Positions 40,317 to 45,052 of a DNA stretch of 64,000 bases are shown here, piece after piece. The position numbers were made by a program, and so were the translations under genes. The stretch's first letter is position 1. Each line of letters starts with the position of its first letter. The notes beneath the pieces are model-generated. The model worked only from the letters and a program-made list of their open reading frames with translations. It searched no databases and had not been told where the DNA came from. The stretch comes from a virus (Duplodnaviria > Caudoviricetes): the IMG/VR virus record IMGVR_UViG_2974729571_000001, positions 29,788 through 93,787 of that record. The stretch is one strand, 5' to 3'.

Positions 40317-40499
40317 TCATTTACTTTCTTTCATATCTTTCTTAGCTCTTTTGTATCCTTTCATATAACCTTCTACATAGGCTTTAGTACATAGATTTGA
40401 TTGTATTGGAGTACAAGGTCTATAAATATAATTCTTACAAGCTCTACTAAATCCATTAGATTGATAGGCTTTTACTTTAACGCTTATTCTTTTTGTCAT
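40317..40499 (-). CDS. Small basic hypothetical protein
   Basis: Start MTKRISV at 40499; ends just before the terminator. Confidence 0.55.
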   Translation of the reverse strand: MTKRISVKVKAYQSNGFSRACKNYIYRPCTPIQSNLCTKAYVEGYMKGYKRAKKDMKESK

Positions 40500-40505
40500 A
40501 GTATT

Positions 40506-40545
40506 ATAAAATAAGAGTACCAGTATTACTACTAGCACTCTTATT
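40506..40545 (-). terminator. Terminator/attenuator hairpin (GUAA loop)
   Basis: Minus strand AAUAAGAGUGCUAGUA-GUAA-UACUGGUACUCUUAUU followed by UUAU. Confidence 0.65.
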
Positions 40546-40570: not shown

Positions 40571-40687
40571 TTATTCGTTCTTATATTTCTTCTCTACTTC
40601 TTGTAGTTTCAGATAGATATTATTACGAGCTTTAAGTTTTGGCAGACTAGCCGCATATCGCATAGCTTTACGAATTTGATTACGCAT
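40571..40687 (-). CDS. 38-aa basic peptide (MRNQIRKAMRYAASLPKLKARNN...)
   Basis: Translated by hand; overlaps the end of the upstream gene. Confidence 0.5.
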   Translation of the reverse strand: MRNQIRKAMRYAASLPKLKARNNIYLKLQEVEKKYKNE

Positions 40688-40973
40688 GAACTTCTTCTCC
40701 GACTTCATCATTTACTTCTTTAGGTTCAACATAAGGATTCCAAGTATTCATAAACTGATTAAGTTCAACCACAACTTTTTCTCGGTTATAAATATCATTA
40801 TCAGCATCGGGAGTTATATCTTCAAGAACAACATGAAGAGTATTACCACCGTTCTTGTCTTGCATACGAGCTAGACTATTACACTGATATACCTTATATG
40901 GTATTTTAGGATTTACTACTTTAGATTTATCTCCATAAGTATCTATGCATAATATATTATTTAATTTAAGCAT
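40680..40973 (-). CDS. Hypothetical protein
   Basis: ORF 40680-41009; likely start MLKLNN at 40973. Confidence 0.65.
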   Translation of the reverse strand: MLKLNNILCIDTYGDKSKVVNPKIPYKVYQCNSLARMQDKNGGNTLHVVLEDITPDADNDIYNREKVVVELNQFMNTWNPYVEPKEVNDEVGEEVHA

Positions 40974-40983
40974 ACTTTTTAGT

Positions 40984-41667
40984 TTAAATAAGTTCTTTGA
41001 AATCAACACCAGCTCTAGTAAGACGAGAAAGAAGAATATCAGAATAATTTCTCATAGATGTAAGCTGACAAGCCATATCGTTTCTCTCTTCTGCATCAAG
41101 TTTCCTAAAGATAGGATTACCATTAATAAACGCATTAAGTTTATCAATCTTATCATTAAGTTCTTCATATTCTGTAATTACACGTTGAATATGAGAAGGA
41201 TACTTACTTTCTTTAGGCTTAACATTAAGACCATATTTAGCCCATTGAAGAACAAAACCAAGATGTGCCCAAAGGTCATTAACAACTTCTTCCATAGCAT
41301 ATTGTTTGCCAAGTTCCTCACTATAATTCTTTGGGTCAACACAAGAAGAATGACGAACAGTATCGAAACCACTGCGAGTATGAGCATTAACAACAGTAGT
41401 CTTTTCTCCTATTGTTGTAACATCTACATCTGTAATAAAGTTCTCAACATCTTCTTTTAGAATCTTAGTACCGTCATTATTCTCTGAAAGAGGATAATAC
41501 GCAGCATCAGCTACATCTTTCGGTGACCAACTTTTATATCCGTCAGGATAAGTAACTTCATAACCCATATCATCGGGATGAGCATTACCTATTTTATAAC
41601 CAGTTGATAGAGCCATACTAGCTCTCATTGGTTGAAGTTCAACCATTTTAATTCCAATTGCTTTCAT
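40984..41667 (-). CDS. Three-domain protein (GY-V-Y-DGY-SWSP domain, Phage_gp49_66-like domain, crAss001_48-like helical domain); candidate anti-defence fusion
   Basis: Motifs GYEVTYPDGYKSWSPKDV; GFDTVRHSSCVDPKNYSEELGK...WAHLGFVL; RVITEYEELNDKIDKLNAFI...QLTSMRNYSDILLSR. Confidence 0.65.
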   Translation of the reverse strand: MKAIGIKMVELQPMRASMALSTGYKIGNAHPDDMGYEVTYPDGYKSWSPKDVADAAYYPLSENNDGTKILKEDVENFITDVDVTTIGEKTTVVNAHTRSGFDTVRHSSCVDPKNYSEELGKQYAMEEVVNDLWAHLGFVLQWAKYGLNVKPKESKYPSHIQRVITEYEELNDKIDKLNAFINGNPIFRKLDAEERNDMACQLTSMRNYSDILLSRLTRAGVDFKELI

Positions 41668-42788: not shown

Positions 42789-42931
42789 TCTTTACCACAG
42801 TTAATACATTTAAAAGTAATTGGGTCATTTTCCTCTTCCCGTGGAACTTCTTCTAGTCTAGCACCACAATTAGGACAACGTGGAACAGTAAATAACCCAA
42901 TTAGTTTTTCAATAAAAGTTCTTATTCCCAT
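42779..42931 (-). CDS. 50-aa zinc-ribbon protein (not in ORF track)
   Basis: MGIRTFIEKLIGLFTVPRCPNCGARLEE...FKCINCGKEWS*, with two CxxC pairs. Confidence 0.7.
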   Translation of the reverse strand: MGIRTFIEKLIGLFTVPRCPNCGARLEEVPREEENDPITFKCINCGKEWS

Positions 42932-44010
42932 ACATTAGCTAGAGCATAATTAAGAGCTTTAAGACTAGTATTGTAATCACCTTCAAATACTGTATTCTTC
43001 AAACGAAGTTCTTCTGTCTTATACTCTTTAACGTTAGAGAAATAACCAGTAACAGCATTATAAGCACCATAAGCTGTACCAGCTATTAGTCTTTGACCAA
43101 CACCTTCCTGATAATATTCAAAAGAATCACAGAGAGTATTTAGTTTCTGCATAGATATTCCAGCAGCTTCATAGGCAGAATTATCTCTACGGAATAGACC
43201 GTTATATAAAGACAATCCATCTACTCTCTCGAATTCTTCCCCCGTAAGGAAAGTTGCAGACAAATACTTTTTCACTTCTTCGTCTGATACTTTAGTTTTA
43301 TATAATACTCGATACATATCTTCTTCCTCTTCTATCTTACGTTCGGTAAGACCAAGTATTTCAGGAACAGTAAGTATCTTAGTATTGACACCTTTATTAT
43401 GTCTAAAAGATATATAACTTTCGGCTGATATTCTAGCTGCATGAAGTGCGTTCATACAAACAACTCTTATAGGAGTAATCATCGTTTGTACAGCACTACC
43501 ACCATCATGACTATTAGTAAAGACAAAGTAATGTTGAATAGTATCGTTTTTGCCACCAATATTAATATCTTTATCAAATGTTGCTGACATAAATATCTTT
43601 TGTCCATAACCAAAATATCCTGCACGGTCGAGTTTTACTCTACCACCAAGAGCATCATCAAAGAAGCCAAAAGCCATTTGATTTTGTACTACTTCGTATC
43701 GAGACTTTACTTTCCCAAGAGGAATATTAGTATCAGTACGATAAGTTGCAAACTCACCAGGAACATCAACAAATTCAAAGCCGTTAACTACATTAGGAAA
43801 AATAGAACCATCACGACTAGCACCATTATCGTGTGCTGGCATTTTAGCAGATAGCTGACATTTAGCAACTGTATAATCGAGTTTAGCTTTTACAATAGCT
43901 TCTTCTGTTGTCTTACAATCGCTAATGTCTATACCTATTTTACCTCTCCAAGCAATTCCTTTTGCTTTGAATTTACTTCTATAACTTGAATCTCTAAAGT
44001 TAAATTCCAT
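42922..44010 (-). CDS. DUF932/DUF945-family protein
   Basis: LG-V--RYEVVQN, FTNSHDGG, TPIRVVCMNAL and GTAYGAYNAVT motifs. Confidence 0.85.
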   Translation of the reverse strand: MEFNFRDSSYRSKFKAKGIAWRGKIGIDISDCKTTEEAIVKAKLDYTVAKCQLSAKMPAHDNGASRDGSIFPNVVNGFEFVDVPGEFATYRTDTNIPLGKVKSRYEVVQNQMAFGFFDDALGGRVKLDRAGYFGYGQKIFMSATFDKDINIGGKNDTIQHYFVFTNSHDGGSAVQTMITPIRVVCMNALHAARISAESYISFRHNKGVNTKILTVPEILGLTERKIEEEEDMYRVLYKTKVSDEEVKKYLSATFLTGEEFERVDGLSLYNGLFRRDNSAYEAAGISMQKLNTLCDSFEYYQEGVGQRLIAGTAYGAYNAVTGYFSNVKEYKTEELRLKNTVFEGDYNTSLKALNYALANVWE

Positions 44011-44118: not shown

Positions 44119-44892
44119 TTACTTAATTATTAATGATGTATTACTTTCTTGTTTAGCAATAGTAAGGTCAGCATCCATACTCAAATTAGCTGCAATAATA
44201 GACTTACTAGTACAAGACTTAAATTCTACCTTATGAGGATTTTGTCCAATCCATTGAGCAAGATTAAAGTTAGTAACATTTGCAAGTTCTGATAGACGAA
44301 TATGAATTGATATTTCAGTATCAATAGAGAACACATCGTCAACAGTAACATCTACAAATGAAGATTGTTCAGATTCCTGCTCCTCTATGGGGGAACTTTC
44401 AGCTTTCATGTGAGCACTGATAATACGAGATAGATACTCAATACTAAGACTTTCCTTAATTTCAGTACTTGCAAGATATTCAGTAACTATATCCATAAAG
44501 TGTCTGATAATGTCGGCAATACGAACATCGTCTAACTTAGTAACAGTAGTATTACGAGAATAGACTTTATAAGTACTACCTTCGATTACTTTGTTACCGG
44601 ATTTACCAGTAGAACCAAACATAAGAACCGCTTCAAGAACCGCATCTTTAAGACGTTCAAGAGTATTATTTCTTGTTTTCTTAATTTGGTTAACACGAGC
44701 AACTTCGTCACTACATTCTTTAACGTCACACTGATAACGTTTAATTACTTGAAGATAATCTCCAATCTTGTCTTTAAGATTATCTTCTGTAATACCTAGT
44801 TTAGCAACAATTTCTTCTGTTGCTTCACCTTCTTCGAGTTGCAAGATAATATCCTGCAACTCTGCTTTAATACTAAATAGACTACTTCCCAT
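44119..44892 (-). CDS. Siphovirus Gp157-like protein
   Basis: SLFSI...L-EGE N-terminus and coiled coil E--R----K----N--ERLK. Start MGSSLF at 44892. Confidence 0.7.
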   Translation of the reverse strand: MGSSLFSIKAELQDIILQLEEGEATEEIVAKLGITEDNLKDKIGDYLQVIKRYQCDVKECSDEVARVNQIKKTRNNTLERLKDAVLEAVLMFGSTGKSGNKVIEGSTYKVYSRNTTVTKLDDVRIADIIRHFMDIVTEYLASTEIKESLSIEYLSRIISAHMKAESSPIEEQESEQSSFVDVTVDDVFSIDTEISIHIRLSELANVTNFNLAQWIGQNPHKVEFKSCTSKSIIAANLSMDADLTIAKQESNTSLIIK

Positions 44893-45052
44893 TATGTCTT
44901 GATTTAAAATAAGGTTTATCTTTAGTAGAATAACACATATAACTAACAGGACAATCCATAGTTCCCCGTCTTTCACAATCATGGCATCTAGGAGAATTAT
45001 CCTTTTTAGTTAGTTTTAATAGTTTACTTACTAACTTTTTTAGAACTTTCAT
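44882..45052 (-). CDS. Small Cys-rich protein
   Basis: CHDC...CP...C motif. Confidence 0.55.
   Translation of the reverse strand: MKVLKKLVSKLLKLTKKDNSPRCHDCERRGTMDCPVSYMCYSTKDKPYFKSRHNGK

Follow-up and report, generated by a model that had tools for sequence, protein, structure and literature searches.

A Probable Fused Anti-Signalling Sponge with Three Modules in a crAss002-Like Bacteroides Phage

The stretch of viral DNA analysed here (the window, 64,000 nucleotides) is part of a complete virus record of 93,787 bp with direct terminal repeats. Positions 40984–41667 of its minus strand form one single open reading frame for a protein of 227 aa, and the question raised by this locus is whether its product neutralizes signalling molecules of host immunity and which of its parts would be responsible. 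An earlier note had taken the protein for a multivalent signal neutralizer, which is still the best reading of its sequence, and our analysis makes it quite probable that this crAss002-like Bacteroides phage encodes a fused sponge for such signals.

Gene and Domain Architecture

The locus was 92% identical to Bacteroides phage crAss002 (Crassvirales, Intestiviridae). A search with the whole protein produced 1,390 homologues, the closest of which (78–94% identity) belonged to crAss-like contigs of about 95 kb, and the gene is kept in more than 1,000 crAss002-like sequences. The coordinates of the gene, its modules and its neighbours are listed in Table 1.

Table 1. Positions in the window of the putative sponge gene, its modules and neighbouring genes.
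Feature	Position	Strand	Basis or remark
Whole CDS (N-module, Acb4, Sequestin order)	40984..41667	-	Open reading frame list and translation; 227 aa plus stop
N-terminal module	41470..41667	-	Residues 1-66; small beta/alpha domain; no Pfam family; homologue, by profile comparison, of the CB1 gp68 N-domain
Acb4 domain (PF13876, Phage_gp49_66)	41224..41469	-	Residues 67-148; dsRBD-like alpha-beta3-alpha
Sequestin domain (PF21825, crAss001_48)	40987..41223	-	Residues 149-227; helical hairpin
Sequestin-module segment (~224 bp) absent from crAss002	40996..41219		Pairwise DNA alignment
Three small downstream ORFs	40680-41009, 40571-40711, 40317-40538	-	109, 46 and 73 aa
DUF932 protein, upstream neighbour	42922-44010	-	E 1e-40
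Sipho_Gp157-like protein, upstream neighbour	44119-44982	-	Annotated as Gam-like nuclease inhibitor in crAss002

The division into three separable modules of about 60–85 aa, proposed in the earlier note, was borne out by the Pfam matches, by the existence of a sequence family corresponding to the N-terminal module (N-module) and by the structure prediction. The whole protein, modelled as a monomer with AlphaFold2 from an alignment of 86 sequences, had a mean pLDDT of 93.4 and folded into three compact units: a beta/alpha unit at residues 10–56, an alpha-beta3-alpha unit at 71–145 and a helical hairpin at 158–218. PADLOC and NCBIfam scans of the 227-aa protein gave no match. When the whole protein was compared with PDB sequences, the best, albeit weak, match was the Acb4 of phage SPO1 (9E4W, E 0.13), chains of Acb2, Tad1 and Tad2 were absent at E ≤ 10, and the other matches were those expected by chance. 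The Tad2 HMM (PF11195/DUF2829) matched neither the protein nor any other part of the 93.8-kb phage genome, which contains a single copy of PF21825. A literature search for this three-module architecture in crAss phages returned nothing specific.

The Acb4 Domain

The middle module (residues 71–141) matched PF13876 with an E-value of 3.9e-15 and 56.6 bits against a Pfam cut-off of 27, and the domain searched alone scored 59.6 bits. PF13876 is the Acb4 family (bioRxiv 10.1101/2024.12.30.630793). In the AlphaFold2 model this part consists of helices at 71–77 and 117–145 enclosing three strands at 78–86, 90–97 and 102–108. When the model was compared by Foldseek with known structures, as the earlier note had recommended for each domain in respect of known sponges, the top 10 matches were all chains of 9E4W (probability 1.00, TMt 0.57–0.74, rmsd 1.5–5.3 Å), and VIA-align to 9E4W gave a Z score of 8.4 and an rmsd of 2.7 Å over 75 residues, while proteins of the dsRBD and hibernation-factor type reached Z of about 5. 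The assignment of the middle module to Phage_gp49_66/Acb4, proposed in that note from a sequence pattern, thus agreed with the family profile and with the best match in both sequence and fold.

The SPO1 protein belongs to the same Pfam family and has the same fold at about 20% identity; however, it is a stand-alone protein of 96 aa, in contrast to the domain of the crAss-like phage, which is embedded between two modules. Its ligand-contacting residues were mapped onto our protein through the weak PDB sequence alignment (E 0.13). By this mapping, the equivalents of K36, F48, E49, F62 and I66 (K89, F101, D102, Y115 and L119) are conserved or conservatively replaced, while V56, Y57, T70 and K81 are not kept (C109, V110, Y123 and A134) and N63, which in SPO1 Acb4 makes its contact through the backbone, corresponds to S116. 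Only part of the pocket is therefore conserved, and the ligand preference may differ from that of SPO1 Acb4.

The Sequestin Domain

The C-terminal module (residues 157–218) matched the full length (1–61) of the PF21825 profile with an E-value of 3e-19 and 69.1 bits against a cut-off of 24.8. This family, crAss001_48 in Pfam, is that of the Sequestins, which are 3'cADPR sponges; it was discovered because no other Pfam family is fused as often to Acb4 and Tad2, with 91 fusions to the former and 60 to the latter. SequestinA was found to bind 3'cADPR, and ten of the 13 tested Sequestins inhibited type I Thoeris, the other three being inactive (bioRxiv 10.1101/2025.07.12.664507). The resemblance of this module to crAss001_48 and its connection with Thoeris-signal sponges, as suggested before any database search, both held.

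The predicted helices span residues 158–183, 185–189 and 192–218, with pLDDT of 93–98 in the 10-residue blocks covering 161–210. All four pocket residues of SequestinA, R8, E12, Q47 and R61, are kept with identical spacing as R162, E166, Q201 and R215; they are invariant in an alignment including Ab09 gp59 and retained in at least 98.5% of 203 close homologues. In common with SequestinA, SequestinB and Y16O of phage T4, the domain is a helical hairpin of about 65 aa with the family HMM match and the R/E/Q/R spacing, but in our protein it forms the C-terminal part of a fusion and, moreover, is subject to an indel polymorphism in closely related phages. When this domain was used as a query against PDB sequences, neither a Sequestin chain nor any other meaningful match was obtained. 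The hairpin also aligned by VIA with recombinase, PI3K and SMC coiled-coil structures (Z 7–8), which was judged to be generic.

Relation to Known Sponge Fusions

The closest characterized counterpart is gp59 of the Pseudomonas phage vB_PaeP_C2-10_Ab09, an Acb4-Sequestin fusion which forms a tetramer, binds 1'',3'-gcADPR tightly, 3'3'-cGAMP weakly and also 2'3'-cAA, inhibits type I Thoeris and, in part, CBASS, and triggers Panoptes (bioRxiv 10.64898/2026.06.04.730250). Residues 67–227 of our protein are collinear with it (BLASTP E 1e-13, 28% identity over 118 aa), and the two proteins have the same order of sponge domains and the invariant Sequestin pocket residues. In contrast, gp59 has only 147 aa, lacks the N-module, shows a low overall identity and comes from an N4-like Pseudomonas phage instead of a crAss-like Bacteroides phage. 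Matches spanning at least 80% of the Acb4 and Sequestin part were found in 84 phage records, and the full-coverage matches among those listed came mostly from N4-like phages of Pseudomonas, Achromobacter, Stenotrophomonas and Alcaligenes. Fusions of Acb4 with Tad2 and of Tad2 with PF21825 (Pasteurella phage Pm86 and a Comamonas element) similarly carry two sponge domains per chain and block two signalling systems (bioRxiv 10.1101/2025.07.12.664507); however, both the protein and the genome of the crAss-like phage are devoid of Tad2.

Since Acb4-Sequestin fusions have already been published and one of them is biochemically characterized, the protein of the crAss-like phage represents a further example and not a new system. 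Three aspects were absent from the searchable literature: the combination of three modules, the wide association of the N-module with sponges and the module polymorphism in crAss002-like phages.

The N-Terminal Module and Its Partners

Residues 1–66 had no match in Pfam. Used as a HMMER query against 1.84 billion cluster representatives, they retrieved a family of 528 representatives at E ≤ 1e-3, in which the module is almost always located at the N-terminus of proteins of 60–250 aa. The signature of the family is IG.K.V.A.PM ... GY.V.Y.DGY.SW.PK.VF..AY, with W47 invariant and G35, Y36, Y40, D42, G43, Y44, S46 and P49 conserved in more than 90% of the members. Among the 109 representatives of at least 100 aa, the partners were Acb4 in 26, Sequestin in 26 and a Tad2-like (DUF2829) domain in 20, and no other partner recurs; the frequent fusion to DUF2829/Tad2, which the earlier note had suggested, was thereby confirmed. 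The proteins of the Bacteroides phages BF1-TP2 and BS-TP2 that contain the module are themselves annotated as DUF2829, and gp41 of the prototype crAssphage consists of the N-module and Acb4.

Modelled alone, the module reached a pLDDT of 92.4, with no strand assigned to residues 1–9 despite their high pLDDT. Comparison with solved structures gave no clear match (best Foldseek E 1.0, best Z 3.2 in a VIA-wide search). Small barrels of the SH3, chromo and Tudor type and DUF1653 appeared among these hits, from which we claim no fold for the module, either known or new. A PDB sequence search with its profile produced nothing meaningful and no RyR Tad chain, and only unnamed viral clusters were found in the ESM Atlas.

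A homologue with a solved structure was found in gp68 (RyR Tad) of the Pectobacterium phage vB_PatP_CB1. Since tblastn with the N-module did not reach this protein, a profile comparison was needed, in which hhalign aligned the module with residues 1–70 of gp68 at 97.1% probability (E 6.7e-11, 64 columns); by this comparison the module and the N-domain of gp68 are homologous. Both share the K..V.A.PM and GY.V.Y...Y.SWSP..VF motifs and the position N-terminal to a sponge domain, the difference being that the partner in CB1 is a RyR Repeat12-like gcADPR sponge (PF02026), and in the crAss-like phage Acb4 and Sequestin. It follows that the module accompanies four sponge families: Acb4, Sequestin, Tad2-like and RyR. 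[quoted passage not shown]

The order of the modules is not fixed. In the Rhizobium phage RHph_X3_15 (QWY83778, L004:1165-1920) Acb4 (20–95) is followed by the N-module (approximately 113–178) and Sequestin (187–246), from which it follows that the N-module has been shuffled as an independent unit. The 398-aa gp45 of the Xanthomonas phage Xoo-sp14 (L005:1483-2676) combines the N-module with Sequestin (56–123) and continues for about 270 residues that have no Pfam match and may include a further partner domain.

Apart from these proteins, residues 22–53 of the N-module matched eight times along the 883-aa protein P0255 and four times along the 669-aa protein P0355, which probably reflects a resemblance of beta-hairpin motifs and not homology. 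A Pfam scan of the protein set including both of them gave single kinase, beta-propeller and Tectonin matches among its members.

Proposed Function and Alternative Readings

The oligomeric state, the ligands and the anti-defence activity in vivo are proposed here from the characterized homologues. By analogy with SPO1 Acb4 and Ab09 gp59, the Acb4 domain would build a tetrameric, pinwheel-like core with four pockets at its interfaces, sequestering CBASS-type cyclic dinucleotides, that is 3'3'-cGAMP and probably signals of the c-di-AMP type, as is the case for Acb4 proteins of other phages infecting Gram-negative bacteria. The Sequestin domains would pair into antiparallel dimers capturing the type I Thoeris signal 3'cADPR (1''-3' gcADPR), and a single polypeptide would in this way blunt two host signalling defences. 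The N-module is, by a slight preference over the other readings, an assembly or dimerization element, as its homologue is in the RyR Tad crystal structure; the complete particle would then be a tetramer on the Acb4 core carrying Sequestin dimers and N-module dimers.

How far the ligands of the two sponge domains can be predicted from their relatives is a separate matter. Both domains may be genuine sponges tuned elsewhere, Acb4 to c-di-AMP or 2'3'-cAA-type molecules and Sequestin to another ADPR-derived signal, and to this we assign a lesser but still appreciable likelihood. Such a shift would fit the partial divergence of the Acb4 contact positions from SPO1, the binding of 3'3'-cAA by Acb4 proteins of Gram-negative-host phages (bioRxiv 10.1101/2024.12.30.630793), the affinity of N4 Acb4 for c-di-AMP (111 nM) and the behaviour of Ab09 gp59 with 2'3'-cAA and cGAMP; however, all eight of the Acb4 homologues tested bound 3'3'-cGAMP (bioRxiv 10.1101/2024.12.30.630793), and the 3'cADPR-contacting residues of Sequestin are all four conserved. 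It is, on the other hand, very improbable that the protein is no sponge at all but a regulatory or nucleic-acid-binding protein with an RNA-binding middle domain of the dsRBD type and a plain coiled coil as its tail. The resemblance of the Acb4 fold to dsRBDs and ribosome hibernation factors and the generic coiled-coil matches of the hairpin would allow it, but both family HMMs matched far above their cut-offs, Acb4 ranked ahead of the dsRBD proteins in fold comparison, the Sequestin pocket is intact, and the KR motif by which true dsRBDs bind dsRNA is missing, only K121 being present at the start of the helix.

For the N-module, the alternative to an assembly element is a third ligand-binding unit from a new sponge or inhibitor family, which would make the protein trivalent instead of bivalent with a scaffold; we regard this as rather unlikely. 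Equally doubtful, in our opinion, is its broader variant, in which the module acts against host defence in a way not described before, by soaking up an immune signal or by inhibiting a defence protein, and so becomes the fifth member of a toolkit of shuffled modules comprising Acb4, Sequestin, Tad2 and RyR Tad. The argument for a binding function draws on the fact that every identified partner family is a sponge, including the RyR domain of CB1 gp68, on the varying position of the module, as in RHph_X3_15, and on the near-invariant aromatic and polar motif (Y36, Y40, D42, Y44, S46, W47, P49). Guilt by fusion was also the reasoning that revealed the Sequestins (bioRxiv 10.1101/2025.07.12.664507), and a family of 528 cluster representatives outside Pfam would leave room for an undescribed anti-defence unit. 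Stand-alone forms of 60–75 aa, corresponding to the single ORFs mentioned in the 2026 preprint, point in the same direction, as a bare dimerization handle would be useless alone; some of these short representatives, however, resemble truncated or chimeric ORFs. Against a binding function speak the sole experiment with a homologue, which addressed type I Thoeris alone and showed no activity, and the fold searches by Foldseek and VIA, in which no match suggested binding. An assembly element remains our preferred, if narrowly held, reading of the N-module, and as a well-defined unannotated family with such fusion partners it is a reasonable candidate for guilt-by-fusion testing.

The analysis places fused nucleotide-signal sponges, a published counter-defence strategy, in the abundant crAss-like phages of the human gut. 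Their presence in this group, including gp41 of the prototype crAssphage, implies that signalling of the CBASS and Thoeris type matters in the conflict between Bacteroides and its phages.

Gain and Loss of Modules Among Relatives

The crAss002 isolate itself encodes a shorter version of the protein, gp38 (MN917146 65647-66099), which has 150 aa and comprises only the N-module and Acb4. The DNA alignment of the two loci contained one clean gap of about 224 bp corresponding exactly to the Sequestin module, and on both sides of the gap the identity exceeded 90%. Among close relatives clustered at 90% identity, all three modules were present in 206 of the 215 clusters and Sequestin was missing in nine. 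Close relatives of crAss002 thus differ by gain or loss of the Sequestin module, and those with and without it lend themselves to a natural comparison of their host ranges on Thoeris-carrying hosts.

A different deletion was seen in P0122, a protein of 154 aa found on one 37.8-kb metagenomic contig only, where residues 83–154 (the Acb4 core) are removed in frame and the N-module and Sequestin are left. This could be either a real escape from sponge-sensing defences (Panoptes, PanDA) or an assembly artefact.

Neighbouring Genes

The putative sponge gene lies in a leftward operon directly downstream of the dUTPase gene. Further upstream are the genes for the DUF932 and Sipho_Gp157-like proteins (Table 1), and the operon therefore includes additional host-takeover or anti-nuclease functions. 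From the opposite side, the gene for a virion RNA polymerase (vRNAP) of 4,213 aa converges on the sponge gene, its 3' end being about 1.4 kb away.

The interval between the sponge gene and the converging vRNAP gene is occupied by the three small downstream ORFs, for which Pfam gave zero matches and whose position resembles the vRNAP-adjacent anti-signalling hot spot of N4-like phages. The 109-aa ORF overlaps the end of the sponge gene by 26 nt, and in two metagenomic proteins, P0218 and P0232, the N-module is joined directly to the C-terminus of its product.
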